Assembly (NCBI GenBank): GCA_964368755.1
Contig: CAYJCR010000001.1
Location: forward strand, 3,939 to 67,938
Origin: an uncultured Lachnospiraceae bacterium
GTDB taxonomy: Bacteria; Bacillota; Clostridia; Christensenellales; UBA1242
DNA length: 64,000 nt
Direction: 5' to 3'
This document shows, in pieces, positions 1 to 43,597 of the stretch. Within the stretch, counting starts at the first letter, position 1; every line of letters starts with the position of its first letter. The position numbers and the translations under genes were made by a program. Below the pieces are notes generated by a model, which was given only the letters and a program-made list of their open reading frames with translations, had not been told where the DNA came from and searched no databases.

Positions 1-3000
1 CAGTACAACTCTTGTAGACAAAACTACCAGCATGATTGGATATGGTAGCGAATACAAAGAAGATTATGTTGGATTCAATATAGGTAATGTTAAGCCAGGT
101 TCTATGACAAGTTTGTTGACAAGCCTTGCATTGTATATGGAAGAGGATTCTAAGATATACTTGAGGAATACAAACTCAGATGGTTACAACTTGGGACTTT
201 ATATCAGACCAACAAGTAATACAGTATCCGACACATATTTTGATAATCAACTAGTATCTATCAATGCAAATTATAAGATTGGTACTGTAGAATTTGGAGA
301 AAGTGGAGCTTTGAAGATCGCCAAGGCTTTTGACCAAGCCAATCCACTTGATAGCTACTTCGTAATAACTCCAACTGGAGAATTGATAGGAAAGAACGAT
401 TTGAGCCTTGTTCTAAAGTTAGAAAATGGAGACAACGATCTTGAATTAACTATCCCAATCTCTATTGCATATAGAGCACTTAATCCAAGTATCAAATATT
501 TTGAGACAGGAAAATATGTCAAGACACAAGATAGGAATATAGTTGCTAACAAGGTTTATTATTCTAAGAGTGGCGATGTGTATACAAAAATCGAGACTCC
601 TATCGCAAGTAGTCTTAGCAATTATTATGAAGTAGACAGCAGTGTAGATTCTTCTTCGATATACTTTGCTTCTGCAAGTAATACACCACTCAATCTTGAT
701 GATTCTTTCTACAATCAGAATGCTGATCTAGAGTCAGGCTCTCAGGCAACGCTTGTTAATCCTGCATACGGGACGAAGTATACCTATTCATCTAATGCAA
801 CTTATAAGACACTAAAATATTTCTTGCCATCGAATTATACATTTGAAGGCAATGCTGATGAAATAAAAGTTACCCAAGTTGATGTAGAACCAACTGTATG
901 GGCATTTAATTCAAAGAATCGTGTTAACTATTACAAAACTACCCCAGATACAGCAACGATCTTGTATCTAGACAATTTTAGAGAAATAGGCAATGCAATA
1001 GCTTTTTCTTACAAATATGGCGAGATGACATCTTATATCAATGAAATTGTATATCCAACAAATACTGGTGCTTATCTATGGAATATCTATTACAACAATG
1101 CAGAACATAAGTATGCCTTTTACAAAAACACAGAATGGTATTTGGCTGAATGTACAACTTCTGCTTTGACAAGTGCAGGCATTAGTGGTTTGCCAGTATC
1201 AGTTCAAGCAAGTATAAATAACAAAACAAGTATATTCAATGGTAATACCTTGTATGTTGTTAGCACAGCAGATAACAATTATGGATTGAACAAATACACA
1301 ATCGCAGATAATCCAAACATGACCTTCTATGCCAATCTTTTGCAAAGAGATGGTTCTATAGAAATTGTAGATGGTATTGTATACTTTGGTGGATATAGTG
1401 ATAATATCTTCACTATTTATGCCAAAGTTGTTGCTACATACAACGGAGCGCCTTATCTCGATAGCAATGCAGATTATGTTACAATAACCAACGATGGTGA
1501 GTTGGGTATTAAGTTCCAAGTGTATGACGAACTAGATATTGAGGAAATTGAATGTTTTGTCAATGATTGCGAATACAACTTTGAGAGTAAATACACATTC
1601 GATTGGTCAAGAAAAATATTGTATGATAACGAAAATATTTATTATGGGCCACATTCTGATACTGATGTAGATAATGATATATATGTTTACCGAATTGGTT
1701 CGGATAGATATACTATTACTCACTCTGGAGTTTCTAAGAATGGTACTCAATTGTTAACAAGAATATATCTTTATGAGAATGAGAATTATTCTGTTGCAAT
1801 CACTAAGGGCACAAACTCACAAATTGCTCTCAACAAGAATTTGAGCAATATGGAGATAAGCCTTAGTAATAACATATCGGATAAAAATATATATTGTGGA
1901 GATTCAGGCAGTTATTATAACCAATTTGAGTCTATTGGAGGAAGCATATCCTCTGAAGGAACATCTATTATAAGTACTCCGATACTTGAATCACTCAAGA
2001 CATTAGGATCGGGTGCTAATACAGTTGGCGACAAAGCTGCAGACATTGTTATCACTAATGATGGCTCAAGCTATACAAAGAATGTATACATCAAAGATAA
2101 GAGAATAACTGAAGTTGTTGCTGGATATTATGATGAAGTAAGTATACCTGCAGAGATAATAGACAATTATTGTGTTATTGAGCTAAATAGTAAGAGATAT
2201 TTGTGTGCAGGAGATAATGGATTCTATACTTACACTGATGGAACTGATTACTATATTGTTGTTGGTGATGAAACCACACATAAGACATATAAGAACAATG
2301 TTATCACAGGTGTCAACATCACGACAAATACTAGTGGAAAGTTCGTATATAGTGAAGATATTGATAACTTCTTCTATTATTTTGTAACTAATACTGGAGA
2401 TATAGAGACTAGTGGTGCTGATATCACAACAAAAGTAGCCGATGTAGTCAACACTGAGATATCTGCTTCTCCTAGTGACGGTAAAATGAACCTTAATATA
2501 TTGTCAGCATCTAGTGGTCAGACATATACAATTGAGATTACATTAGCAGATTTGTCTGAGAATGCCTTTATTCAAGACACTACGAATACTCCTTTTGAGG
2601 ACACAGATATAGTCTGTCAAACAGTTAGCCTTACTATAGTCGTACCAACTTTGACACTATCAGATGCTACAGATTCTATCGGATTCAAAAACAATGATAT
2701 ACTTTTGAGCAATGTAATCGAAGTAAAAGATGGAACGACAATTGTTACTGATAGTAGCATTGAATATGTCCTTGCGAACTCTCTAGACAGCGAATATGTC
2801 AAGATAGTTAACAAAACAGATGGATATCATTTATATTGTCTTAAGGATTTACAACAGAATAGAGCAATTACTATTAATGTTAGATTGGGCAATAAGATTA
2901 TTGGTTCAAAAGATATCTCATTGACAGTTCCTTATACAACTAAGAATATCACATACGCATTGTCATCAGACACAGCTGTTAACCCTAGCAAAGAATACTA

Positions 3001-6000
3001 TACTAATGCTAGCGATGTTTATATCAAAGTAGCAAATCCTACTGGCGATCCAAGTGCATTGGGATACTATGAAAAGACTTTGAATGCCAACACTTCATCC
3101 AATAGGATAGCTTTGAATGCTGGTAAGAGTTATACTTTGTCAAAGATATTGGATATAAAAGATTTGTCTTCTGATAAGGCAATCGGATACGGTAGATATT
3201 TTGTATTTGATGGCAAAGTGTTTGGATTCACAATCACAGGCATCCAATGTGAAGGAGCCGATTGCAGTAAAGATACAAGTGGCGACTATTATGTATACAA
3301 CAACTACTATTTGCGTATAGTTGACAAGAATAGTGATGAGATTCCAGATACAGTTGAGATATATGAATTGAACAACTATATTGCAGATACCAGTTTGCAA
3401 GTAACACCTCAATACGATGAGGGTGATTTCTCAGGAATAACAGTTGTAATAGGTGGGTCAACAAGGTCGTTTGGTTTTGCAACAACAGGTGGTTCGTATT
3501 CAATGCAAGAAGAAGATGTTGATATCACACCAGAAGTGTTCAGTGGAGTAACATATTGGCCTATATCTGGCACGTTGTATGCGTTTACGATAACTGAAAC
3601 AGCAGGCGTATATTCATATGGTCAGATGTATCGCAAAGAATTGGGACTATCAACGAACTTTGCTTCTAATGCTTTAGATATCAAGAAGATGGAGTTAACC
3701 ACAACATCGAAGTATGTTATTCTTATTGAAGACAATCTTGATGTTTTGCACCTCAACTCAGATAGCATTGATGCTACAATCACAATGACTATTGGATCAT
3801 ATACAAAAGAGATATACTTGCATTTGACGGAGATCTTTGATGATAACAGTATAGGTTTGTATGATTCACAAGATGAAAACAAAGAAGCTGTATATGCAGA
3901 TAATGGCACAAATACAATCAAAATACCTGCGCTTGTTAGTGATATTAACAATCATGCTATAACGAACATACAAGCTACTTTTGTTAAACTTGTAAGTAGA
4001 GAAAACATTAGTCCTTTGCCTTCTTCAACATTCGAATGTGATGGCAAGGCTTTTGGATACAATGCTGGAGCGATAAGCTACAATGGTGTTGCTCTTGAGC
4101 AGAGAGCAGGTTACTTTGTATACAACGATCAGTATGCGTTCAAGGTTGAGGCTGAGGAGATCGAGGTATACAACATCGAGTCTACTGGAGATTTGATCAG
4201 TTCTGCGTATAATAATAAGACTCTTACATTTGAGTCTCAGAACATATCTTCAGACATGATAATCATGGCGAACTTGCACATAGTATTTGGAGAAAGTAGT
4301 AAAGAGATATATATTGATGCGTACAAAGTATTCGGACTCAGAGCAAAGTTGAGAATAGAAGTCAAAAATGATGAAATCAACTCTGGAGTTAGTGCCGATG
4401 TGTCTACAACAAGCTATCTTGATTGTACGTCTAACACAGGAGCTGCCGTTGTTGCAACGGATATATTGAGTGGATCAACTTATGCTTTGGCACTTGGCGC
4501 TAATGCTGATGGCAATCTTCAGCATGTAGACAGAACAACAGTAGCGGACGATGATGGCAAATATTACGAATACTATTATATCAAGATAGATGGAGTAACT
4601 AAGGTTACATTGAAGATAACATATGATGCTTTCCTCAAATTTGAGAAAGCTACGTTAATTACTGGATATGTATCGGAAGATTATGTTTGCTATCTTGTTG
4701 TGCAATATCAATCAGCAGAGTATAGATTGCCAATAACAGTCAGACCACTTGTGGATATGGGCTATAAGATAACTAATAGTAGTTCGGATCCAGAGATAGT
4801 AGATAGTAACAGTTCTCTTAATATGTTAGATGATAGATTTGATATCTCATCTAACGACGGAGAGACAAGAACTCCAACTATGTCGCTCAAAGCATATGAC
4901 GCTACGGGCAAATTATTGTCGGCAGAAGAGACAGAGAACATAGCAGAAATAAACGGAAGCAATGTTGTGATAAATAGCAATACTGCTGATTATATACTAG
5001 AGATCATAGCTAGTGTGGAGATAAAAGATGTCGAAGAGACGGTATTGTTCTCAAGAAGCTTGAGTTACTACGTTGCTATTAGGAGAGATATATCTTTCTC
5101 GACATACTACTCATATAGTAACGGTAATGATTATTATATCTTACCTCATGAATTCGCAGAAGGAATAGTATATGAAGTAGCAACTCTTGACTATGTAGAC
5201 AAATATGATGTTGCATATGCTGGTGTTAATCCTAAGCCTGGAACAGCCTCAGTGTATAGTTTAACTCTAGATACAGCAATAATTGCTGGTAAGATATATT
5301 ATATAAGAACTGGGACTGAAGACAACTATATTTTCACTGAAGTTGATCCAAGAGCTTCGCTATATGAAAGTGCAGGGGCAGATACTTACAATGCAACTAC
5401 AGATGCAATAATAGTATCTAACAAGACATACTATACAAGATCAGGAAGTGAAGGATCTTATATTTACAGTGAGGTTAATCCAAGCACTTTGGATTGGTAT
5501 ACAATGACAAGTTCGATCTTCTATCGCAAGGCAATAGATGATGAGAATAAGTACAAGTTCGATTTTGACAACAGAACATTTACATTCGAGAAATATAAAA
5601 ACACAGCTACCAAAGTGGAAGGTGTTGCCAAAACATACAATTTGACTATCTCAGAATGGAACGGTACAACATATGTTAACTCTAACTATAGAGTATATCT
5701 AGGCGATACAAGCGCAAATGTATATCTATTACAGCAAACAGTTCCAGTTAGTGCAGATAAGTTCTTATATGGTGGAGATACCTTTGATGTATCAACATTG
5801 GTTGTAGGGATTGCTGGATTGAGCAATATCAAAGATAATGTATATTGTCTAGTTGATTCAAGTGTTGCATATATATATGTAAACACATCTGATAGGACAA
5901 TACTATCGAAGTTCGATCACGCTAGTATCGATTATATATATAGAGATGGTGAGTTATATCAAAACAACGCAAAGATAACTAAATCAAACAACATTTTTGA

Positions 6001-6895
6001 ACATCTTAATGGAAGTTATTATGAAAGCAAAGGCTTGTTCGTTGACAAAGATGGATATAAGGTTGTAAGTACTATCTCACTAGGCAAAAATGCAGATGAA
6101 AACTATATATTTACATTGAACGAACATAACTATGTATTGAACTATAGGCTTATCAATAATAAAATAAAATTAGCATACGGAGACAATACTTCAGCTAATA
6201 TAACTAAAGGCAATGAAAATGTGACGATCACTACAGGAACAACAATTACAAAAGCTTATCTTGTAGAAGATGGAGATTATTATATCTATTTGGTCATTAC
6301 TTGGACAAAGGGCTCAGATAATAATATAACAATTGTTAGTGCGGCTGATATAGTAGCATATTCGTTTGCAAAGCATAATTATTCTTCTTCGAGTTTTGTA
6401 CTTGCTAATAACATTATTAACATCGTTGGAGAGGATCTAGTATTCAATAGTAGCAATAGTGGAATGAGTTACAAAATATCTCCAACTGCTGCTGCGACAC
6501 CTTTGACAATGGGAGATTATGTTTCTGCAAGTGGAGAGGTTGTTGATCTAGATTCGCTTATCAAAACTGACGCTACATATTCTACTCTTGTTACCATTAG
6601 CATTAATGATATGGGACAGGGTAGCGAGGAGTATAAGACATATAATTATCAGGACATTGTGACGTTATATTACACTGGCGAAGATATTGACGATGTCATA
6701 GCTGGGGCATATTTGGGTAATAGAACGACAACCAATGGAAGAACATTCTATGCGTTATATTACAATACTTCAAATGAGATCAGGCTTAGCACGATCACGG
6801 AATGTGGTGGAATTGTTCAAGCAGCGATTGTAGTAAAAGCAAGCGACAAAGAGATTGGAAGTTTTGCTATTATCAATACTGCAAGAGAAGGATAA
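1..6895 (+). CDS. Giant Tyr/Asn/Thr/Ser-rich protein of unknown function, 5'-truncated by the window edge (at least 2,297 aa visible)
   Basis: Uninterrupted ORF ending at TAA 6893-6895. The frame is already open from nt 2 (STTLVDKTTS precedes the first Met at 32), so the gene probably starts upstream of the window. No motif assignable to a known family. A ~40-aa motif of the type T.D..I...K.YY....G..Y..V recurs. A strong terminator follows. Confidence 0.8.
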   Translation, partial: STTLVDKTTSMIGYGSEYKEDYVGFNIGNVKPGSMTSLLTSLALYMEEDSKIYLRNTNSDGYNLGLYIRPTSNTVSDTYFDNQLVSINANYKIGTVEFGESGALKIAKAFDQANPLDSYFVITPTGELIGKNDLSLVLKLENGDNDLELTIPISIAYRALNPSIKYFETGKYVKTQDRNIVANKVYYSKSGDVYTKIETPIASSLSNYYEVDSSVDSSSIYFASASNTPLNLDDSFYNQNADLESGSQATLVNPAYGTKYTYSSNATYKTLKYFLPSNYTFEGNADEIKVTQVDVEPTVWAFNSKNRVNYYKTTPDTATILYLDNFREIGNAIAFSYKYGEMTSYINEIVYPTNTGAYLWNIYYNNAEHKYAFYKNTEWYLAECTTSALTSAGISGLPVSVQASINNKTSIFNGNTLYVVSTADNNYGLNKYTIADNPNMTFYANLLQRDGSIEIVDGIVYFGGYSDNIFTIYAKVVATYNGAPYLDSNADYVTITNDGELGIKFQVYDELDIEEIECFVNDCEYNFESKYTFDWSRKILYDNENIYYGPHSDTDVDNDIYVYRIGSDRYTITHSGVSKNGTQLLTRIYLYENENYSVAITKGTNSQIALNKNLSNMEISLSNNISDKNIYCGDSGSYYNQFESIGGSISSEGTSIISTPILESLKTLGSGANTVGDKAADIVITNDGSSYTKNVYIKDKRITEVVAGYYDEVSIPAEIIDNYCVIELNSKRYLCAGDNGFYTYTDGTDYYIVVGDETTHKTYKNNVITGVNITTNTSGKFVYSEDIDNFFYYFVTNTGDIETSGADITTKVADVVNTEISASPSDGKMNLNILSASSGQTYTIEITLADLSENAFIQDTTNTPFEDTDIVCQTVSLTIVVPTLTLSDATDSIGFKNNDILLSNVIEVKDGTTIVTDSSIEYVLANSLDSEYVKIVNKTDGYHLYCLKDLQQNRAITINVRLGNKIIGSKDISLTVPYTTKNITYALSSDTAVNPSKEYYTNASDVYIKVANPTGDPSALGYYEKTLNANTSSNRIALNAGKSYTLSKILDIKDLSSDKAIGYGRYFVFDGKVFGFTITGIQCEGADCSKDTSGDYYVYNNYYLRIVDKNSDEIPDTVEIYELNNYIADTSLQVTPQYDEGDFSGITVVIGGSTRSFGFATTGGSYSMQEEDVDITPEVFSGVTYWPISGTLYAFTITETAGVYSYGQMYRKELGLSTNFASNALDIKKMELTTTSKYVILIEDNLDVLHLNSDSIDATITMTIGSYTKEIYLHLTEIFDDNSIGLYDSQDENKEAVYADNGTNTIKIPALVSDINNHAITNIQATFVKLVSRENISPLPSSTFECDGKAFGYNAGAISYNGVALEQRAGYFVYNDQYAFKVEAEEIEVYNIESTGDLISSAYNNKTLTFESQNISSDMIIMANLHIVFGESSKEIYIDAYKVFGLRAKLRIEVKNDEINSGVSADVSTTSYLDCTSNTGAAVVATDILSGSTYALALGANADGNLQHVDRTTVADDDGKYYEYYYIKIDGVTKVTLKITYDAFLKFEKATLITGYVSEDYVCYLVVQYQSAEYRLPITVRPLVDMGYKITNSSSDPEIVDSNSSLNMLDDRFDISSNDGETRTPTMSLKAYDATGKLLSAEETENIAEINGSNVVINSNTADYILEIIASVEIKDVEETVLFSRSLSYYVAIRRDISFSTYYSYSNGNDYYILPHEFAEGIVYEVATLDYVDKYDVAYAGVNPKPGTASVYSLTLDTAIIAGKIYYIRTGTEDNYIFTEVDPRASLYESAGADTYNATTDAIIVSNKTYYTRSGSEGSYIYSEVNPSTLDWYTMTSSIFYRKAIDDENKYKFDFDNRTFTFEKYKNTATKVEGVAKTYNLTISEWNGTTYVNSNYRVYLGDTSANVYLLQQTVPVSADKFLYGGDTFDVSTLVVGIAGLSNIKDNVYCLVDSSVAYIYVNTSDRTILSKFDHASIDYIYRDGELYQNNAKITKSNNIFEHLNGSYYESKGLFVDKDGYKVVSTISLGKNADENYIFTLNEHNYVLNYRLINNKIKLAYGDNTSANITKGNENVTITTGTTITKAYLVEDGDYYIYLVITWTKGSDNNITIVSAADIVAYSFAKHNYSSSSFVLANNIINIVGEDLVFNSSNSGMSYKISPTAAATPLTMGDYVSASGEVVDLDSLIKTDATYSTLVTISINDMGQGSEEYKTYNYQDIVTLYYTGEDIDDVIAGAYLGNRTTTNGRTFYALYYNTSNEIRLSTITECGGIVQAAIVVKASDKEIGSFAIINTAREG

Positions 6896-6917
6896 GATCA
6901 ACTTTTAATCATAAAAA

Positions 6918-6958
6918 ACATCTTATGTGAGACTTGTTCCTCATAAGATGTTTTTTTG
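6918..6958 (+). terminator. Rho-independent terminator of the giant ORF
   Basis: ACATCTTATG ... CATAAGATGT 10-bp stem followed by a T7 run. Confidence 0.8.
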
Positions 6959-7170: not shown

Positions 7171-7893
7171 ATGGGTGTATTTGATAACGAAATATATTCT
7201 AACAAAGAGAAGTTCAGTGAACTTAGTTTTATTGCGCAACGTGATGTATTTTTGAAGATTCGTAGTTGGGTACCCAATGTATCCAAAGAGATAAGGGCAG
7301 ACAAACGTAGATTTGAGAAGATTGTTCTCAAACGTATTGAGCAAGTTGTGACATTTGCAGTTCAAGGCAATATTCCTGCTCAAGATTATCTTGGGTATAT
7401 ATACAAACGTGGATTTGGAGAATTCTTCCCTGTCAATTATCGTAGGGCGATAGAATGGAATGTGTTAGCAGCTTCCAATGGGAGTAAGTTCGCACCTCAG
7501 AAGATGAAAGCATTCCTAAATCCTGCGATTGATATGATATTGTTAAGTAACAAATGGGCGCAGATAGTTGAGTTCAACAATTTAACGAAAGGCAATTATT
7601 TTTGGTTTTTGAGTCAATATGTATGTGATATATTGCGTAATGAGCTTAAACTCAGCGAACTAGAGATGATGAAGAAACCTGTTGTTGAAGAAGATGACAA
7701 TCAGAATAGGACTATTGTTTTCCTTGATAGATTCCGTAACAGAAGTGTTGAGAAGGCTATTGAACTCCTTGAGAAACAACTTCCAGATAATATTGTTGTC
7801 AAAGACAAACAAGGTGTGGCAGAAGACTTGCTCAACGAAGATGAAGAAGACAACAGCTGGGATGATGACGATATAGGTCTTGATGAGATTTAA
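7171..7893 (+). CDS. Hypothetical protein with one Sel1-like repeat and a strongly acidic C-terminal tail
   Basis: ATG preceded by TAGGAG. The segment AQDYLGYIYKRGFGEFFPVNYRRAIEWNVLAASNGSKFA resembles the Sel1/SLR consensus. C-terminus is LLNEDEEDNSWDDDDIGLDEI. Confidence 0.6.
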   Translation: MGVFDNEIYSNKEKFSELSFIAQRDVFLKIRSWVPNVSKEIRADKRRFEKIVLKRIEQVVTFAVQGNIPAQDYLGYIYKRGFGEFFPVNYRRAIEWNVLAASNGSKFAPQKMKAFLNPAIDMILLSNKWAQIVEFNNLTKGNYFWFLSQYVCDILRNELKLSELEMMKKPVVEEDDNQNRTIVFLDRFRNRSVEKAIELLEKQLPDNIVVKDKQGVAEDLLNEDEEDNSWDDDDIGLDEI

Positions 7894-33524: not shown

Positions 33525-33850
33525 ATTCGGTCGAGTATGTCCATATACACTCCCTTGATAAATACGCGTCTGCTTTGCATCTATATAAGCTATTCTACAA
33601 TGAAGGAACTTGTTTGCTCATAGAAAAATGCAGTTAATTTGACAGTTCATAAAAAATAGATATCAAATTGTTTGATTGTTTACTACAAAATAATATATAA
33701 TAATACTATAATAATTATACTGGGTGTCATATAAAGTGCTGACACCAAATTCGCGACTAGGATTGATTAAGTTCGTACTCGATTGAGATTATTACCCAAA
33801 GGACTTTTGATGGACATTAGATAATAAACTTTTTGACAAAGGAAATAGAT

Positions 33851-36800
33851 ATGCACACAAAAGCAAATAGTATTATCGTGAATATAATGAAGTATATTTG
33901 TTTGTCGCTTGCGATAATTTTGTTGGGCACAATTTTGTTAACAAAAACAAGTAACGACTCTGTCGCATATGCTGTAGACAATAATGAAGAAATTGAGACT
34001 TTGGCAGAGGAACAGATCAATACGGAGACTTTGGCAACAGATTATTCCAACTTGCCAATCAGATATATAGGCACGGCACAAGAGTTACAGAACATGGCTG
34101 TGGAAAGATACAAGAATGTATTGACAAATGACATTGTTTTGCCTAACGGATTTTCATCGATTGGAGTGTACTATGGTGCATTTGATGGCGCTGGTTACAC
34201 AATTTCTAACGTAACAAATGCAATATTTGATGATGTTACAGGTTTAGTAGAAAATATTGTTGTTGCTGATTCAACAAGCACCAGCACGGCGTTTATTGCA
34301 AATTCTATACATACTGGGACAACGATAAAAAATTGTACTATTCAAGATACATGCTCTATCAATACTACAAGTTCTATAGCTGGTGGTATTGTTGGTAGGA
34401 TCTTGGGAGGCTCTATTATCAATTGTACTAACCACGCTGCAGTCAGGGCAAGGAATTATGCTGGTGGTATTGCAGGATTAGCAGATGGAGTAAGTTCTTC
34501 TATTGAGAACTGTATCAACTCCGGGATCATTTCTGTTGCAAGCGGGAAATGCTGTGGTGGTATATTGGGATATAAAGAGGGCATTCTTAATGGATATATT
34601 ACCACAATAAAAAGCTGTATGTCATCAACAACAATTGTTGGAGGTTGTAGCTCAAACACGCATACAAAATCTGAAAAAGAATACCTTTTGTATCCCGAAG
34701 AAAATGCTCTTGAAGAAGTAGTTAATCCAGGTGGAGAATTTCTTGGTTATAGGATTTTTTATACTAAAAAAGTAGCTTCTTGGGTCCCTGAGAATGAAAA
34801 TTATATGGTTACTGATAGTGACATGTCTGACTATGCATATATGTCTAAGAATATATTTGGATTAAAATTCATTGCTGAAGGAGTTGGAAGATATTACACG
34901 AGTAGAAATGGTGGAAGTTATCAAGTACTTAAGTATTATACGAAGAAAGAAGTAAGATATTTCAAATACGTTAATAGAATTATCTTCAGTTCTGCCGTAG
35001 AAATAAGTTCTTCTACATATAATTCAAGAACAGGAATAGCATCAATTCTTTCACAATATATTGATGTTAAAAATTGTCGTGCGCTTAATCCTATTTCTGC
35101 GACTTATATGTTCAGCGATATTGTATGTCAGGGTAGTGGTACTCAAGAAGATCCTTATAGAATAACAAATATCGATGAATTGTATACAATGTTGCTCTGG
35201 TATTACAATGGTGGTACTGCAAAGCATTACAAGTTAATGAATGACATTGACTTAAGGGTTAATAACCGTGTTGGTTTCCGTAGTAACGAAAATAATTGGC
35301 TGGAAGTAACTTTTCCTCGTGATAGTTCTTTTGATGGTAACGGCTTTAGCTTATCAGGATTGTATATGTATAGCCTTGGCTTCGCATATGAAAACAATGG
35401 CACTATCAAGAACTTCACTATCTCTGAATCAACAATACTTAGCTCTGCATATGACGATGTCGGAGCATTTGCAACAATCAATAATGGAATAATCGACAAC
35501 TGCTGTTTTGGAGTTAATACATATTTAGCAAAAGGTGGTTTGCTTGTTGGTATTAACTGTGGCACGATCAAAAATTGTTACACAGCGAGCGATGAGTACA
35601 ACTGCGCATATCAAGTTGGTGGAATTGCAGAGAAGAACGTGGGTGGTACAATAACAAATTGTATAAACAATGCAAAGTTGTCAGGATCTTCTGCAAAAGC
35701 AGGTATTGTATGTGAAAACAAAGGTGGTACTTTGTCTCATTGCATCAACTACGGATACATAAGCTCTACTAATTCGTATGCTGGTGGCATTGTAGCTCAA
35801 AGCTATATGTTGGATGACGAAATTAGTACAATAGAATATTGCTACAACAGATTGAACAATGATGCATTAACATGGGGTGCAACTGCAGGTGGAATAGTTG
35901 CTGAAGATAATTATTCTGCTATTAGTTATTGTATTAATGAACAGAATATTACTGGATCAAATCGCGCAGGTGGAATAGTAGGGTATAGTCAAGGAAGTAA
36001 TATATCATACAGTATTAACGGAAAAGTTCAGCCCACTGGTAATCAATATGCTACAATTACTGGTCGTACGATAGGTGGTATTATTGGTTATTCAGCTAAT
36101 AACACTGTTGTTGACTATTGCTACAATTCTGGAAGACTTGTTTCTATCAATACTGTTGGTGGATTAATTGGAACAATATATAATGGTGGGACAATAAGCA
36201 ATAGTTATAGCATTGGACAAATATTGTTTGATGAGAATAGGATTAGTTCATATGGAGAAAGCGCAGGATTGCTGATCGGAAATATTGTTGAGAAGACACA
36301 AGACGTAACGATCACGAAATGTTTCGCTTCAAAAGAGTTTTTCTTGATCCCAGAGAAAGAGATCTCTTTAATTGGTAGTGGGGTATCAACAATTGTTGAT
36401 TCTAGCATACTTGATTCTGAAGCAATGTATTATGAGAACGACAATAAGTTATTTGGTTCTGATCAAAAATGGAGCTATTACGATAGTCCAATCGAAGAAG
36501 ATCATTATTTTCCACAACTAGCTTGGCTAACAAACGCTTTTGAAGAAGATGAGTACTATCAGAGTACAGGTAATGAATGTTCTTACAGAGAATATTTTAA
36601 GTACTATGAAGTATTATGGAATGTTAATTTTATTGATTCAAATGGTCAAATAATAGACAGCAAAGTTGTCCGTAACAATGAGTTTGTAAGTCCATACGAG
36701 TACGTAACAATTGCCTATGATGTTCAGGGTTGGGCTCTCAACAGGAATGGAAGCATTTATGACTTCAACAAACCAATCAATAGAGATCGTAACTTTTATT

Positions 36801-39800
36801 TGATATATACTCCATATTTTGATGATGAATTGAAGAATAATCCAGATGGAACAGAAGAAAAGCCATTTGTTCTTTCGACAGCTAAGCATTTGCAGGCTAT
36901 GTCAGACTTGTTTAATGGCGACAACGCATATAAATATATTGAAAAAAGATACATTCTCAAAAATGACATATCCTTCGGAAGAAATGACAATTATAACGAC
37001 GAGAACAACACCAACTTTGTAAGCATGGGATTAACTACAGGTAGCACTTTTGGTGGCGTATTTGATGGATGTGGATATAGCATTAAGAATATAATGGTAT
37101 CTAGTACAAGTTTAGATATTGGATTATTCTATTATAATAATGGATCTATAAAGAACTTAACTATTTATGGAGAGTTTTCTTCTACAGCCGACAATGTTGG
37201 AGGTTTTGCAGGAACCAATAATGGAACAATAGAAGCATGTCGAAATGTTTGTAAGGTTACAGGAAATTTTAACGTTGGTGGTATTGCAGGATACAATCAA
37301 GGATCAATTATTGACTGTGCTAACGATGGAAGTATTATTGCAAAAGAAAATATCGGAGGTATCGTCGGGATATCTAATAATGGTACAATCTCTCATACAT
37401 ACAACACTGGATATATCATATCAAGCAAAGGATCTGGTGTCGGTGGTATTGTAGGTAGTTGTAATAATACTAGTATTAACAGTGTATACAATGCTGGAGA
37501 GATTGTAGGATACTCCGACATGATTTCAGATAGTGCTGCAGGACTATTGGTTGGGTATCTCAACAATAGTACTGTGACAAATGGATATGCTCTTGACAAT
37601 GAATATATTAATCTGCTCGGGTATATTATTAACTCTTCATCTTCAAGTTCTTATGAAATGCCAATTTACAAGCTCTCATACTATGATAACATGGTATTTG
37701 GTAATGATAGTCGTTGGGGTTATATGCCAGGCGATTATGATAATGGATACGCATATTATCCATATTTGACTGTTCTTGACTATGACGAACAATACGAGTC
37801 GTTAATTGCAGATATATATTCTCCACATATCTTCTCCAAAGGCCGTGGAACAATTGACAATCCATTCGTTATAACAACGGCTCAACAATTGCAAACAGTT
37901 ATGTTCCTTGCTGATAACGGTGCTAGATATAATGAAATTATCAAGGACTCTTTAATACAGACTCTTTATAATGAAGTTATTGATTATATCGCAAATGAGG
38001 ATAATGGTGCTAAATTGCTTTTACATATGGACTTTAGCAATGCATGTTACAAAATTGGCTGCGATATAACTTTTAAAGAGAATTATATTGATGATCTACA
38101 TACATACAATTTTTATCCTATTAATAGTGAGTATATAGCCAATAATGTTGGACAAGGACCAAGTTTTTCTGGTGTTATCGATGGTGGTGGCAATACTATT
38201 AAAGGCCTTATCATAAAAGCTTTACCTTCATATGGCAATGCTTATCAGGTAGGCTTAGTTGGGAACTTGTTTGGAACAGGCGAACTTGATAATATTGGCA
38301 CAAGTACCGATATTGATGGCCGAAAAGGTGTGATTAAGAATCTAACGATCAAGAATAGCAAATACGTATTTGACGATGCCAACAAATCTTCTCAAATATA
38401 TGTTGGAGCATTTGCTGGTGATTCTAATAATGGTATAATATATAATTGCAATTCTGTTAACAATGATTTGGCATTCCGCAATTCTTGCCAAGAGCTAAGA
38501 ATTGGAGGAATAGTAGGTAGGGCAACCGCAATGGAAATCAGAGATTGTACAAATAGATCTTCAGTATACGCATCTTTGCTTGGAATACAGAATGGTGCAG
38601 GAGATCTAGGTGGTATAGCTGGATCTGCTAATGCAACAAAAATACTTAATTGCACAAACTTTGGATATATACATGGTATCGGGCATAAAGGTGGCATCGC
38701 TGCTGTAACCGGCAACTTGTCTAACATAAATAATTGTATTAACTATGGAGACGTTTTTTCAGTCAAAGTGGCTATATTACAAATAACTCAATATGCAGGT
38801 GGAATAGTTGGACAAGGAAGTGCTGTTGATTGTGTTAACTTTGGCGTTATCACAGGGGATTCATCTCCAACGGGGGGAATAGTTGGCGAAGGTAAAGCAA
38901 ATTATTGTACAAACTACGGAAGAGTGTCTACGACAGGAACGAGTTATTCTTGTGGAGGTATAGCTGGTACGGGTATAGTATATGACAGTATAAATAATGG
39001 TGAAGTATATGGCACTTCTATACTAGAAGTATTTGATGATTGTCTTGGTGGAATAGTAGGATATGGCAGAGCAGTAGGTTGTACAAATAATGGGAATGTT
39101 AATGGAACATCAAACAATGTTGGAGGAATAGTTGGTAACTATTCAATAAAGAATGATTTAACACTCCAGCAATGGCAGACTGGATTATGTTCAACAAAAG
39201 ATATAATAAGAATTGCAGAGACAGAAATTGACGTATTGTATTGTGATTGCAATGTCTTTAGCGAGTTATTAGAGAACTCAGGAGATATGTCTAACATTAA
39301 CAAACATACTTCGGCACAGATGTATGATTCGACGGCTGTTGCATTTGATAATGTGAGCCAAAGCTTTGTTGAATTATTGAGTAATTACAATATTAGTGAA
39401 GAAAACATCATAAGTTTAACAGAATTGAGTGATACATATAGCTTATATTCAAACTTTCATTCAAAACTAAAACAATTGTATTTGAGTTCTAATGATTCTG
39501 TAGCAAAGCAATTCAATGAAAGTTTCACTGAGGGGATGCTAGTTGGTATTAACAGACCTTACATTGTTGAGTGTGGGCTTCCAACAATCCCAAGTATTAA
39601 CGAGATTAGAAGTATTATTGCTAGATTGTTCGGATATAGCGATGTGAACACCTTCGTTGAATATGCACAGGCACTTGCATCAGAATATGAAGATAATGCT
39701 TTAGGCGCATCGAACGAAACGCTTGCTTCAAGATTAAAATATAACGGTGCAGTATATACAGAGAATGGGTGTTTTGTTCTTCCATTTGTATTCAAAAATG

Positions 39801-42800
39801 CTAGTTCTAACAGTGTTGATGTTTGTATCATCGTAGATACAACAGGTGCTATTTCTGTGTTAATAGATGATGTGGCCCATGCATACAAAGTAGCTCAAGT
39901 TTATGATGATAACTTTAATGCTCACGAAATAACAAATGTAGAACATATAGAATCTTATGCGCGTTGTGAGTTGTTCGAAAGGTCAGGATCCCGTGAGATT
40001 TGTTCTAATGTGAATGTTGGTTCAGTAGAAGGTAATAACAACGTTGGTGGAATAATCGGTAAGTATGAGATTAACTTAGCTATAGAAAATCCTATATATG
40101 ACAACTACAATACTGGGTCAGTATCTGGCAATTTCCATGTCGGTGGTATTGTTGGATACTCAGTAAGTGGTGTGGACAGGTGCTTTAATACAGGTACCGT
40201 TGATGGTAAAAAATATATTGGCGGTGTTGGTGGTACTATTGCAAAAGTAACGAACAGCTACAATACAGGAAGCATTTCTGCAGAGTATAATATAGCTGGT
40301 GGTGTTGCAGGCGAAGGTTATTACGTTGAGAATTGCTACAATACAGGTTCTGTTTTGGGGCAGTCATATGTTGGTGGCATAATGGGAATGGGTTATGATG
40401 CTTCTAACGATCCTGTAGCATACAATGGTGCAACAATAAAAAATAGCTATTACAGCACACAATCTATGCAACCATATTTTAATTATCTAACTTCAGATAA
40501 TAGTGTTAACATTGATGAATTGAGCTGTGGCAAGACTAATAAGGCGTTAACATATGCTGGTAATCAGTATTTAGGTGATGAATATATTTATACTATAAAC
40601 GAAGGATTGGTATTCTATTATCCAACGTTAGGTATAAATAATGACATAGAGAAGAGCATGAGCGTTTCTCTCAGACTTGTTAATGTAAATATTTTGAATG
40701 AAGATGGTTCTTATTATGGTACATATGTCATTCCAGAGACAACAACAATAGCATTCAATGATATTGTTAAGGATAGATTCGGTTATGGTTTCGAAAGATT
40801 ATACAATGAAGACGGAGATTGGGATCTAGATGATGAGATATATGAAGATGTTGTATTGACTATATCTTATTATGAATATTTTGAGAACTCTGATTCATAC
40901 TCAGAAGATGGATATTTCCTCATCACTAAGCCAGAACATTTGATTAATCTATCTGCTTTGATATATAACGACAATGATAATTATGCTACCTTAACTTATG
41001 TGCTAGGTAATAATATTGATATGTCTGGCATAGACTTTATTCCTATTGGCAACGAGTATGCTACAGAGTTGCCATTCAGAGGAGTATTTGATGGCCAAGG
41101 ATATACAATAAACAATCTAACAATTTCTGGTCAAAATGGTCATAAAGATATTAAGATCTGTGGTTATGAGAAGTCAACTCCTGACTATAGTCATATTGGA
41201 TTGTTTGGATATGTTTGCCAAGATGAAAACATGATTGCTGAAAATAAAGAAACTGGAGTTGTTAAGAATCTTGGACTAATTGGTGGTAATATTTCGGCTT
41301 TGGCTAGCAATGTAACAGGAACACATGCAAAAGATAATGTTGGTTCGATTATAGGACTATCTAATGGTGCTAGTCTTAACAACTGCTTTAGTACAGCCAA
41401 AGTGTATGGAAAAGTTAATGCCGGAGGTCTTATTGGTAAGATCACGGGAGATCTTGTAAGCAATCAGTTGTATAATCTTGCGTTTAACGGCGTGGTTACA
41501 TGTGTTGAACTTGGCGAGACAGTTGGCTTTGGATCCAACTTCGGTGCATTGATTGGAGAAGTTCAATCTGATAACATTGCTGAAGATTTCATTATGAATG
41601 CTTATGTAGTTGGGCCTGTATATATGAGATCTGATAATACCAATAGAGTCATATCGATTATTGGTAACAGCAATAGCAGCAACTTTACTTCGTTAAGAGA
41701 TAATGATACGTTGTACTATATTAGCGATGCTACAAGTGGTACGGCGATTAATAGAAGTGGTCTTGGTATTTCTAAGACTATGAAACAAATACTTATTGAT
41801 GAATTATATGAGATATGCGATGATATGTCACTATTGAGTGTGGAGCATGATGTAGATACTTATTTTTATCCACAAATAGAGATTTTCGTTGAAAGGAATA
41901 ATGCAGAAGCGATGAATGCTTTGTCAAGAAATATCTACGTTGTATCATTCTATAGTAATGGTGCAGATAGAACATTTGACACGTTGTATTTATTCGAAGA
42001 AAATTACAAATTGAATGCTGAGGATTATTTGGTCAGTATAGATAATTATACATTCTCAGGCTGGTATGCTTTTGGTAGTGAAAAATGGGATTTTGACTCA
42101 ACAGTTAACACAAGTATGAATCTTGTTGCAAAATGGAAAGTCGATTCTACCGAAGTATCAATATCGGCAAGTACCGATTCTATTGTATACAATACAGGCG
42201 AGATAGTTTTGTATACAAATGCGCAGAACAGTTTTGCTCAAAGCAATGGTATAGAATATGAATATATGTGGTTAAAAGATGGCATAGAAATACCAAATGC
42301 AACGGGTCGTTCATTAAGATTAACAGAAGTTTCCCAATCTGGTGAATATACATGCATGGTAATAGTATCAGATGGTATATGTTACAATATTGACAAATCA
42401 AACGTAGTTACGGTCAATATACGTAAAGCAGTTTTTCCACAAGAGGTAGAGGCCCCAACGATTGAACCAGTTACATATTCTAAGGATATGAAACTTTCTG
42501 ACATAGAGTTGCCTGATAATTATTATTGGTTAGACCCAGATCAAGAGCTTAGTGCTACAGAAGGTACAAGATATGAGATGTATTATGAACCAGAAAATAA
42601 GAATTATGGCAATGTTGAGTCTTTGTATGCAATAGTTAAGGTTACAAAACTTGATACTGTTATCAACGTGGATATGGTTCGCACAGAATACACATATACG
42701 GGTAGCGAAATAGTTGTTGATAGTGGTGCAACAAGCAACTCTCCAATTCTCATCATGTATAATAACAATAAAATAATGGAACCTGGAGAATACGAAGTTA

Positions 42801-43597
42801 CAATCTATACTTTGGATAGCGTTAATTACAACCCAGCAGAAGTAAAAGTAACTGTTCATGTTGACAAAGCTGAAGGAATAATTGCAGCGAATGAAGTTCA
42901 GTATTGTATATTTAATGGACAGAAACATAATGTCAAAGTTCATATGAATAATACTGAGCAAGAACTTCAATATACTGAAAAATCAGGATATACGAATATC
43001 GGTGCATATGACATAAGTGTTAAGGCACTCGCAAGTTCTCATTATACAGAGTCAAACACTGTCAATATTAGGTTGATTATATTAAAAGACCGTATTAGCA
43101 CTGTAGAGGGTAATAATCCTCAGATAACGATAATAAGTAACCAAGGTATAAATGACGAAGCAAGTGTAGTTGCAAATATTGTTGACAATCAAAATATGAT
43201 TGATAGAGCTAAGCTTATTGTTGCAAGGGATTGTGATGAAAAATTATTGTTCGGAACATTGATAAACATTGAAGTGAATAATGCAACAAGACTTGCAGAG
43301 CCAACTGTTAGACTTGCGTTGCCAGAAGAGCTTAAGGGCAAGGCGACATATCAGGTTGTGTATATCGCTGACGATGGGACATCAGAGGAGCTAGCAACAA
43401 CTATTGATGGAGATTATATCGTATTTGATACTTTACATTTCTCAAATTATGCAATATTGTACAAAGAAGCTCCACAAAAAGTTGAAGTGTGGAAGATTAT
43501 ATTACCAATAAGTATAATACTTGTAGGACTTGCAACCATTGTTGTTGTCTATATAATATCCAAAGTTCAATTCAAAAAAAATAAAAAGCAAAGGTAA
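33851..43597 (+). CDS. Giant (3,248 aa) multi-module surface protein: signal peptide, five GLUG/beta-helix-type modules, Listeria-Bacteroides repeats, Ig-like and MBG-like modules, C-terminal TM anchor
   Basis: Start taken at ATG 33851 (AAAGGAAA RBS); the ORF track starts at TTG 33833. Signal-like N-terminus is MKYICLSLAIILLGTILLTKTSNDSVAYA. About 28 (N/Y)xGGI(V/A)G turns. Five module caps of the type PY/PF-x-I-x-T...L....DI..FDGxGYxIxNL. C-terminus is VWKIILPISIILVGLATIVVVYIISKVQFKKNKKQR. Confidence 0.85.
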   Translation: MHTKANSIIVNIMKYICLSLAIILLGTILLTKTSNDSVAYAVDNNEEIETLAEEQINTETLATDYSNLPIRYIGTAQELQNMAVERYKNVLTNDIVLPNGFSSIGVYYGAFDGAGYTISNVTNAIFDDVTGLVENIVVADSTSTSTAFIANSIHTGTTIKNCTIQDTCSINTTSSIAGGIVGRILGGSIINCTNHAAVRARNYAGGIAGLADGVSSSIENCINSGIISVASGKCCGGILGYKEGILNGYITTIKSCMSSTTIVGGCSSNTHTKSEKEYLLYPEENALEEVVNPGGEFLGYRIFYTKKVASWVPENENYMVTDSDMSDYAYMSKNIFGLKFIAEGVGRYYTSRNGGSYQVLKYYTKKEVRYFKYVNRIIFSSAVEISSSTYNSRTGIASILSQYIDVKNCRALNPISATYMFSDIVCQGSGTQEDPYRITNIDELYTMLLWYYNGGTAKHYKLMNDIDLRVNNRVGFRSNENNWLEVTFPRDSSFDGNGFSLSGLYMYSLGFAYENNGTIKNFTISESTILSSAYDDVGAFATINNGIIDNCCFGVNTYLAKGGLLVGINCGTIKNCYTASDEYNCAYQVGGIAEKNVGGTITNCINNAKLSGSSAKAGIVCENKGGTLSHCINYGYISSTNSYAGGIVAQSYMLDDEISTIEYCYNRLNNDALTWGATAGGIVAEDNYSAISYCINEQNITGSNRAGGIVGYSQGSNISYSINGKVQPTGNQYATITGRTIGGIIGYSANNTVVDYCYNSGRLVSINTVGGLIGTIYNGGTISNSYSIGQILFDENRISSYGESAGLLIGNIVEKTQDVTITKCFASKEFFLIPEKEISLIGSGVSTIVDSSILDSEAMYYENDNKLFGSDQKWSYYDSPIEEDHYFPQLAWLTNAFEEDEYYQSTGNECSYREYFKYYEVLWNVNFIDSNGQIIDSKVVRNNEFVSPYEYVTIAYDVQGWALNRNGSIYDFNKPINRDRNFYLIYTPYFDDELKNNPDGTEEKPFVLSTAKHLQAMSDLFNGDNAYKYIEKRYILKNDISFGRNDNYNDENNTNFVSMGLTTGSTFGGVFDGCGYSIKNIMVSSTSLDIGLFYYNNGSIKNLTIYGEFSSTADNVGGFAGTNNGTIEACRNVCKVTGNFNVGGIAGYNQGSIIDCANDGSIIAKENIGGIVGISNNGTISHTYNTGYIISSKGSGVGGIVGSCNNTSINSVYNAGEIVGYSDMISDSAAGLLVGYLNNSTVTNGYALDNEYINLLGYIINSSSSSSYEMPIYKLSYYDNMVFGNDSRWGYMPGDYDNGYAYYPYLTVLDYDEQYESLIADIYSPHIFSKGRGTIDNPFVITTAQQLQTVMFLADNGARYNEIIKDSLIQTLYNEVIDYIANEDNGAKLLLHMDFSNACYKIGCDITFKENYIDDLHTYNFYPINSEYIANNVGQGPSFSGVIDGGGNTIKGLIIKALPSYGNAYQVGLVGNLFGTGELDNIGTSTDIDGRKGVIKNLTIKNSKYVFDDANKSSQIYVGAFAGDSNNGIIYNCNSVNNDLAFRNSCQELRIGGIVGRATAMEIRDCTNRSSVYASLLGIQNGAGDLGGIAGSANATKILNCTNFGYIHGIGHKGGIAAVTGNLSNINNCINYGDVFSVKVAILQITQYAGGIVGQGSAVDCVNFGVITGDSSPTGGIVGEGKANYCTNYGRVSTTGTSYSCGGIAGTGIVYDSINNGEVYGTSILEVFDDCLGGIVGYGRAVGCTNNGNVNGTSNNVGGIVGNYSIKNDLTLQQWQTGLCSTKDIIRIAETEIDVLYCDCNVFSELLENSGDMSNINKHTSAQMYDSTAVAFDNVSQSFVELLSNYNISEENIISLTELSDTYSLYSNFHSKLKQLYLSSNDSVAKQFNESFTEGMLVGINRPYIVECGLPTIPSINEIRSIIARLFGYSDVNTFVEYAQALASEYEDNALGASNETLASRLKYNGAVYTENGCFVLPFVFKNASSNSVDVCIIVDTTGAISVLIDDVAHAYKVAQVYDDNFNAHEITNVEHIESYARCELFERSGSREICSNVNVGSVEGNNNVGGIIGKYEINLAIENPIYDNYNTGSVSGNFHVGGIVGYSVSGVDRCFNTGTVDGKKYIGGVGGTIAKVTNSYNTGSISAEYNIAGGVAGEGYYVENCYNTGSVLGQSYVGGIMGMGYDASNDPVAYNGATIKNSYYSTQSMQPYFNYLTSDNSVNIDELSCGKTNKALTYAGNQYLGDEYIYTINEGLVFYYPTLGINNDIEKSMSVSLRLVNVNILNEDGSYYGTYVIPETTTIAFNDIVKDRFGYGFERLYNEDGDWDLDDEIYEDVVLTISYYEYFENSDSYSEDGYFLITKPEHLINLSALIYNDNDNYATLTYVLGNNIDMSGIDFIPIGNEYATELPFRGVFDGQGYTINNLTISGQNGHKDIKICGYEKSTPDYSHIGLFGYVCQDENMIAENKETGVVKNLGLIGGNISALASNVTGTHAKDNVGSIIGLSNGASLNNCFSTAKVYGKVNAGGLIGKITGDLVSNQLYNLAFNGVVTCVELGETVGFGSNFGALIGEVQSDNIAEDFIMNAYVVGPVYMRSDNTNRVISIIGNSNSSNFTSLRDNDTLYYISDATSGTAINRSGLGISKTMKQILIDELYEICDDMSLLSVEHDVDTYFYPQIEIFVERNNAEAMNALSRNIYVVSFYSNGADRTFDTLYLFEENYKLNAEDYLVSIDNYTFSGWYAFGSEKWDFDSTVNTSMNLVAKWKVDSTEVSISASTDSIVYNTGEIVLYTNAQNSFAQSNGIEYEYMWLKDGIEIPNATGRSLRLTEVSQSGEYTCMVIVSDGICYNIDKSNVVTVNIRKAVFPQEVEAPTIEPVTYSKDMKLSDIELPDNYYWLDPDQELSATEGTRYEMYYEPENKNYGNVESLYAIVKVTKLDTVINVDMVRTEYTYTGSEIVVDSGATSNSPILIMYNNNKIMEPGEYEVTIYTLDSVNYNPAEVKVTVHVDKAEGIIAANEVQYCIFNGQKHNVKVHMNNTEQELQYTEKSGYTNIGAYDISVKALASSHYTESNTVNIRLIILKDRISTVEGNNPQITIISNQGINDEASVVANIVDNQNMIDRAKLIVARDCDEKLLFGTLINIEVNNATRLAEPTVRLALPEELKGKATYQVVYIADDGTSEELATTIDGDYIVFDTLHFSNYAILYKEAPQKVEVWKIILPISIILVGLATIVVVYIISKVQFKKNKKQR

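Follow-up and report, generated by a model that had tools for sequence, protein, structure and literature searches.

What is encoded by the very long open reading frame (ORF) that fills the first 6.9 kb of a 64,000-nucleotide stretch from an uncultured bacterium of the Christensenellales, and does the motif that recurs in its product carry any meaning? The stretch, referred to below as the window, is G000:C1:3939-67938, part of one contig of the source assembly G000 (GenBank GCA_964368755.1; 1.10 Mb, 43 contigs, 98 % complete). The guts of humans and animals commonly harbour uncultured Christensenellales whose genomes measure about 1 Mb. A preliminary description, made from the letters of the window, had pointed to a giant Tyr/Asn-rich protein with no recognisable domain and a recurrent K-x-YY motif. 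The gene was found to be real and intact. Its product, referred to here as the giant, is probably a cell-surface protein that combines a conserved, anchored stalk with a fast-evolving body and acts as an adhesin or surface fibre, a reading to which we give a probability of about 60 %.

A real and intact gene

The ORF has no stop codon up to the 5' edge of the window (2..6895, + strand), and the expectation that it was longer than the window shows proved right. In the source contig it continues for 798 nt beyond that edge to an ATG at G000:C1:3142, which is preceded by a Shine-Dalgarno site (GGAGAAAG). The full-length protein is 2,563 aa long and is encoded at G000:C1:3142-10833 (window -796..6895). 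Recovery of the upstream sequence also supplied the N-terminus, with its predicted transmembrane helix. The part of the gene that lies in the window and the terminator that follows it are:

1..6895, + strand: in-window part of the giant gene, encoding aa 267-2563 (start codon, Shine-Dalgarno site and transmembrane helix are upstream of the window)
6913-6958, + strand: intrinsic terminator with a stem of 15 bp and a T7 run after it

The 7.7-kb ORF stays open in DNA of 35 % GC. Contigs assembled independently from two other sequencing runs, which over about 8 kb differ from this sequence by 1 nt and 3 nt, encode the same protein unchanged, and the gene is therefore not an assembly artefact. An AT-rich spacer of 500 bp (2680-3120, upstream of the window) separates the rplQ terminator from the giant gene and contains a near-consensus promoter-like site, TTGACT-18-TATAAT, at 2844-2873. 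This suggests that the giant gene has its own promoter and is not expressed by read-through from the rpoA operon. The strong terminator reported at the end of the gene was confirmed, with a predicted folding energy over window 6913-6956 of -16.4 kcal/mol (z = -4.84) that was equalled in none of 200 shuffled sequences; it had been missed in a consensus scan because the stem is AT-rich.

The unusual composition noted for the visible part holds for the whole protein, as Y (8.1 %), N (8.3 %), T (9.6 %) and S (9.2 %) are all above the levels in ordinary ORFs of the genome (4.4, 5.7, 5.8 and 6.9 %, respectively).

Genes of this kind seem to fragment short-read assemblies at the rpoA-rplQ locus. The two independently assembled contigs, Logan contigs of ERR5322706 and ERR5331200, both end within a few hundred bases of the giant's two ends and hold essentially the giant gene only, and in a metagenome-assembled genome (MAG) of the same genus (G001) the ortholog is interrupted at a contig end. 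As short-read assemblies break at them, the frequency of giant genes in MAGs is probably underestimated.

Anchor, base and body of the giant

Residues 7-30 of the giant are hydrophobic (MKRAFKIIGIVSAVVVGVFGIIFGIVAAVNAGK), and in an AlphaFold2 (AF2) model a helix at aa 2-31 is followed by successive beta domains. The helix is predicted to hold the protein in the membrane with the N-terminus inside and the C-terminus outside. The region that follows, referred to here as the base, spans aa ~40-441, and the stretch of it that is best conserved and best modelled, aa 40-280, is for the most part outside the window, on the upstream side. The features of the base and the body that fall within the window, other than the K-x-YY copies, are:

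1..526, + strand: C-terminal part (aa 267-441) of the immunoglobulin (Ig)-like base, from alignments, AF2 and Foldseek
3197..3376, + strand: second, weaker internal repeat, copy A (aa 1332-1391; F-x-F-D-G-K-x-F-G ... YYVYN ... EIY), from Smith-Waterman alignment
4028..4183, + strand: second internal repeat, copy B (aa 1609-1660), from Smith-Waterman alignment

Forty relatives were found to align to the giant, over its first ~350 residues only. A profile built from the N-termini of five relatives was used for the survey of related genomes that had been proposed in the preliminary description, and within one family of the Christensenellales it detected the base in 123 of the 201 genomes, representing 38 of the 58 genera. 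It is present in a single copy in nearly all of the matching genomes and always opens a giant ORF, of about 1,000-5,000 aa. A signature that follows the transmembrane helix, T-E-N ... V-W-P-I-K ... N-V-G-G ... V-D-V-P-V, is carried by the giant. Apart from the K-x-YY module, no sequence homolog of the giant was found outside this one bacterial family. Judged by these alignments, the giant belongs to an undescribed, lineage-restricted family defined by the base domain.

The base was modelled with AF2 from a 30-sequence alignment. The mean predicted local distance difference test score (pLDDT) was 77, exceeding 90 over most of aa 40-280. When this model was compared with the PDB using Foldseek, 312 matches were obtained at E <= 1e-3, and the best of them were dominated by tandem Ig-like arrays (titin I67-I69 at 1e-7). 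These arrays also included DIP/Dpr, protocadherins, the S-layer proteins SbsB and SbsC, a tail protein of phage SU10 and intimin D0-D1. The alignment profile of the base had no significant match among PDB sequences, where a Big_2-containing chain was sub-threshold at E 0.47. The base is accordingly modelled as a membrane-proximal string of Ig-like beta-sandwich domains, which covers aa ~40-400. The earlier statement that the protein has no recognisable domain therefore stands for the sequence libraries and fails for structure.

The remainder of the giant, a Tyr/Asn/Thr/Ser-rich body of ~2,150 aa, is lineage-specific. A word-indexed search of 5.8 billion proteins, with the whole giant and the tandem-module region as queries, returned only the giant itself. 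An exhaustive phmmer search of 1.84 billion protein representatives with aa 1240-2439 gave 24 matches at E <= 1e-3, and all of the non-self matches fell within positions 3-151 or 758-871 of the query, where the K-x-YY copies lie. Scans of the whole giant against Pfam, PHROGs (none at E < 0.1) and NCBIfam gave nothing significant, and neither these nor the protein searches placed it in a described adhesin or phage-fibre family. When all ORFs of its own genome were searched with phmmer the giant again found only itself; there is no paralog, and the claim that it is unrelated to a second giant in the window, which contains GLUG repeats, was upheld.

BLAST self-comparison of the giant detected no repeats besides the K-x-YY module. 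The second repeat listed above, of ~55 aa, follows the pattern F-x-F/C-D-G-K-x-F-G ... Y-Y/F-V-Y-N ... E-I/V-Y and gave a Smith-Waterman score of 63 against 27 +/- 5.5 in shuffles (z = 6.5). Its copies are 280 aa apart. Repeat blocks of ~280 aa were considered and rejected, since the similarity stops short of the flanks. The possibility that the body continues the Ig stalk was also examined by comparing the three base sub-domains with sliding windows of the body in hhalign. No probability exceeded 0.9 %, so the stalk does not detectably extend into the body. The body is probably beta-rich and, as judged by these comparisons, almost entirely non-repetitive.

The giant gene directly follows rpsK-rpsD-rpoA-rplQ. 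A base-domain giant was found 0-3 kb after rplQ in about 20 related loci whose sequence reaches far enough downstream. The relatives anchored on RpoA are MAGs labelled as uncultured Clostridia, Christensenellales or 'Christensenella sp.', and were recovered from human (Hadza, Brazil, Nepal), goat, sheep, roe deer and other samples. The ortholog in the same genus (G001) shares only 34 % identity with the giant over 366 aligned N-terminal residues, compared with 88 % and 77 % for the flanking RpoA and L17 of the same pair. This contrast indicates that the locus and the base are conserved, while the body has been replaced or has diverged past recognition between genera. The giants at this locus vary in length from about 1,400 to about 5,000 aa.

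The K-x-YY module

Exactly four matches to K-x-YY were found in the giant, at the sites that had been quoted in the preliminary description, and the last two are in tandem as had been described:

509..640, + strand: K-x-YY copy 1 (aa 436-479), 43.8 bits
2948..3082, + strand: K-x-YY copy 2 (aa 1249-1293), of the 'P-x-G-D/N-P ... GYYE' subtype, 60.1 bits, with foreign phmmer matches
5249..5365, + strand: K-x-YY copy 3 (aa 2016-2054), short form, 21.3 bits, modelled with AF2
5381..5509, + strand: K-x-YY copy 4 (aa 2060-2102), in tandem with copy 3, 26.6 bits, modelled with AF2

The scores come from a profile of copies found outside this genome only, so their significance is free of circular training; when the giant was shuffled 500 times with its composition kept, no score exceeded 6.4 bits. 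The motif is also conserved in hundreds of unrelated proteins, and it is therefore not the compositional noise that had been raised as a possible explanation.

An alignment of 42 copies gave the consensus xxYxLTxDTxVxxxKTYYTxSGxxYTxVxxPxxxxxxxxYYE. K15 and Y17 are invariant, and Y3, D8, Y18 and the V, P, Y and E are conserved in at least 90 % of the copies. An AF2 model of the tandem pair, made from a 28-row alignment, had a mean pLDDT of 79, and each module in it consists of four short strands, Y-x-L-T, K-x-YY-T, x-Y-x-x-V and YYE. In the short form a truncated last strand is followed within a few residues by another copy; in such 'short' tandems, the closing YYE strand of one unit is the opening Y-x-L-T strand of the next. 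The K-x-YY unit is thus predicted to be a four-strand beta mini-domain of 40-45 aa.

Foldseek found nothing similar to the module model in the PDB (best E 0.44, template modelling score 0.25) or in BFVD. The motif had been said to be of no assignable family, and this was borne out, with no significant match in Pfam (isolated modules, E <= 10), NCBIfam, PDB profile searches or PHROGs. The YWTD blades of the LDL receptor appeared in the PDB profile search at E 0.33 and were dismissed as chance. Literature searches for the motif and related concepts revealed no paper describing it.

The module is found in several kinds of protein. The 23 foreign proteins matched by phmmer and two phage capsid proteins together hold 62 copies. 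The two capsid proteins were found by tblastn against phage records, which detected the module at 55 % identity in two human-faecal phage contigs:

MT835552.1 (L009:9957-11132): module-bearing major capsid protein
MT837839.1 (L010:8784-9857): module-bearing major capsid protein

They belong to two families, phrog_247 and phrog_422, and their genes come immediately after those for the portal and scaffold proteins. A third type of capsid protein with the module, 328-342 aa long and encoded after a scaffold-like gene, was found in seven IMG/VR contigs (L011-L017; e.g. L012:5338-6324). Each of the three capsid families has a single module, inserted internally near residue 240 in proteins of 328-391 aa, and this suggests that a knob on the capsid surface has been acquired repeatedly and independently.

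Other carriers include a secreted protein and proteins with collagen repeats and tail-fibre PHROG matches. One carrier family has more than 546 members, and all 118 of the members listed hold one to four modules. Its representative occupies the tail-tip slot of a siphovirus-type structural module, in which the gene order is capsid, Gp19 adaptor, tail tube, tape measure, a 345-aa protein, the carrier, a 449-aa protein, holin and endolysin. This gene order and a few PHROG matches suggest that the carriers are phage tail-tip proteins. The module appears to be displayed on pili too, as the C-terminal half of a 222-aa type IV pilin-like protein (P0025), which has the N-terminal methylation motif GFTLAELL (PF07963), consists of K-x-YY modules.

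The genome studied here holds 10 module copies in three giants. A 6,702-aa ORF at G000:C2 (- strand) has five, at aa 4778-5833, and a 2,254-aa ORF at G000:C3 (- strand) has one, at aa 1156-1189. In the C2 protein the modules lie within a larger repeated unit, and MTNGSVTGGYNKTSD...YYELNLINSGAVT is present twice. In the family as a whole the module is sporadic (12 of 121 genomes), and in six other genomes (G002, G047, G069, G081, G094 and G095) it lies within the base-domain giant. The giant of G095, at 2,546 aa near-equal in length, was considered as a full counterpart and set aside, as the base and one module are all that the two have in common.

Neighbouring genes, proposed role and known systems

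Downstream of the giant are a Sel1-like gene, a gene for a SpoVT/AbrB-type regulator, dus, a Na/Pi transporter gene, pgk and the gene for iPGM. The first of these had been reported as encoding a Sel1-like acidic protein:

7171..7893, + strand: Sel1-like acidic protein, 240 aa, without a signal peptide, with a weak Sel1 match and found in 14 related genomes

That identification was supported. In 14 of the related loci a homolog follows the giant immediately (E 1e-77 to 1e-94), and the Sel1-like protein is far better conserved than the giant itself. Here its gene has promoter-like sites of its own, and the terminator stands between the two genes. The Sel1-like protein could be a cytoplasmic partner of the giant, such as a chaperone or export helper, or merely a conserved neighbour.

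Very large ORFs are a feature of this genome. Eleven ORFs of 1,700-6,702 aa (on C1, C2, C3, C7 and C9) make up 9.8 % of its 1.1 Mb. Where the N-terminus can be read, most of them begin with a signal or lipoprotein (…GCGG) sequence. The other giants have the same Y/N/T/S-rich bias. Runs of N are present inside the N-terminal regions of the 2,254-aa ORF on C3 (-) and a 2,328-aa ORF on C9 (+).

As an adhesin or surface fibre, the giant would project outward from the cell, with the base supplying anchoring and reach. The body and its aromatic mini-domains would make the contacts, most plausibly with glycans or with the surface of another cell, and the tyrosine-rich modules would be exposed contact points. 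Selection by phages, by the host or by competitors may make the body turn over fast. That the module is displayed on capsids, tail tips and a pilin speaks for its exposure and for a generic role outside the cell, and the mini-domain may be a portable, surface-exposed module that is exchanged between gut bacteria and phages. If beta-hairpin repeats rich in aromatic residues and the Ig-like domains that decorate phages are a guide, weak glycan binding would be the likeliest role for it.

Some of the data weigh against this reading. The giant is identical in three assemblies, and there is no diversification within the strain; the diversification is seen instead between species and genera. The N-terminus includes a possible signal-peptidase site, between AVNA and G, and the helix may be cleaved. 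In the alignment the A-x-A motif of this candidate site is not kept in homologs, so we read the helix as an uncleaved signal-anchor. Finally, the module could be purely structural, serving in oligomerisation or stabilisation, and have no ligand.

A rival reading makes the giant a structural component of the envelope, an S-layer-like or protective coat in which the base docks and the variable body shields the cell from phages and host immunity. The gene is near-always single-copy, occurs family-wide and lies beside the highly expressed ribosomal/rpoA operon, SbsB and SbsC are among the Foldseek matches, and about 9.8 % of the genome is given over to giant exported proteins of similar composition. 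However, Pfam detects no SLH or other S-layer anchoring domain in the giant, and matches to Ig arrays are generic. S-layer proteins are also usually 400-1,500 aa long and self-assemble via conserved domains, whereas the body of the giant is unconserved. A coat is an unlikely competitor to the adhesin or surface-fibre reading. The occurrence of the module in phage tail-tip proteins and capsids as well as in bacterial giants, and the 10 copies that make this genome unusually rich in it, bring up another role, one mainly in phage-host recognition. Modules on the cell surface would meet phages bearing the same module, either as a receptor, through homotypic pairing of beta strands, or as a decoy. 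We regard this as improbable. It presupposes that the module-bearing phages infect this lineage, the idea of homotypic binding is wholly speculative, and the module is present in only 12 of 121 family genomes whereas the giant is found in most. Display on the capsid, moreover, points to a generic ligand in the environment and not to a host-cell receptor.

The same phage connection might mean that the giant gene is itself phage-derived, either the remnant of a prophage tail fibre or a phage-like structural gene. The module is common to tail fibres and capsids, and a tail protein of phage SU10 is among the fold matches of the base. Against this, the surroundings contain no phage genes, only rpsK-rpsD-rpoA-rplQ on one side and the genes for the Sel1-like protein, SpoVT/AbrB-type regulator, Dus, Na/Pi transporter, Pgk and iPGM on the other, and the locus is kept across genera. 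An N-terminal transmembrane anchor is untypical of a virion protein and there is no PHROG match. This explanation is close to refuted. A broader form of the adhesin or surface-fibre reading, which is tentative and on balance doubtful, would make K-x-YY a new, widespread class of gut surface-display mini-domain. It would move among bacterial giants, pilins and phage capsids and tail tips and bind a common ligand (mucin or cell-wall glycans), thereby targeting phages and hosts with small genomes to the same niche. The giant would then belong to an adhesin system of the 'conserved stalk plus swappable head' type, spread across the family, by which these Christensenellales with reduced genomes would attach to a host surface or a partner cell.

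Whichever role applies, the base marks one giant gene per genome in most of the family. The locus of this gene is conserved, and its body is replaced from one genus to another. Greater interest attaches to the module, which is compact, widespread in gut phages and without an entry in domain or structure databases. If it binds a ligand, it would be a new small adhesion module with a bearing on the adherence of gut phages, on the annotation of phage receptor-binding proteins and on protein engineering. Should its role be structural alone, its description would still be useful, as an ordinary annotation.

Among known systems, the module invites comparison with the Ig-like decorations of phage virions (Hoc-type, Big_2 and I-set insertions), which are thought to adhere weakly to glycans and underlie the idea of 'bacteriophage adherence to mucus'. 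Both are small beta modules that are found on capsids and tails, also occur in bacterial surface proteins and are inserted in unrelated structural proteins. The K-x-YY module differs in being half the size, with four short strands, and is not Ig-like. It also recalls the choline/cell-wall-binding repeats (CW_binding_1), since by eye it looks like two aromatic hairpins of ~20 aa with a G-K-x-Y-Y-...-G core, and both occur in tandem on surface and phage proteins. However, the period is ~40 aa and not ~20, the conserved T-x-D and P-x7-YYE elements differ, and isolated modules gave no match to PF01473 (CW_binding_1) in Pfam at E <= 10.

The giant as a whole may be likened, from general knowledge and not by sequence, to the giant Ig-repeat surface adhesins of bacteria, such as SiiE, LapA, Ebh and MpIBP. 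These too are very large exported proteins in which an Ig-like stalk projects a distal binding region, and they are likewise fast-evolving and lineage-specific. The Ig arrays and intimin D0-D1 matched by the modelled fold agree with this comparison. Unlike them, the giant has no Big, CadG, RTX or type I secretion system signatures (Pfam, NCBIfam), it is predicted to be anchored by an N-terminal transmembrane helix, and its body appears essentially non-repetitive and does not consist of tens of near-identical repeats. Specifically, no Pfam model for Ig-like (Big_1/2/3) or cadherin repeats matches it, Pfam and NCBIfam detect no YD, RHS or RTX repeats, and there is no SLH or S-layer match in Pfam. 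An LPXTG sortase signal was looked for at the C-terminus, which reads ...SFAIINTAREG*, and neither LPXTG nor a hydrophobic tail is present there. The other giants of the same genome, among them the 3,254-aa GLUG beta-helix protein (window 33833-43597) and the 6,702-aa C2 lipoprotein, resemble it in composition, export signals and extreme size, and have no detectable sequence similarity to it outside the module. Among all of these, it is only the 2,563-aa protein that has the Ig-like base and the position at the rpoA-rplQ locus.

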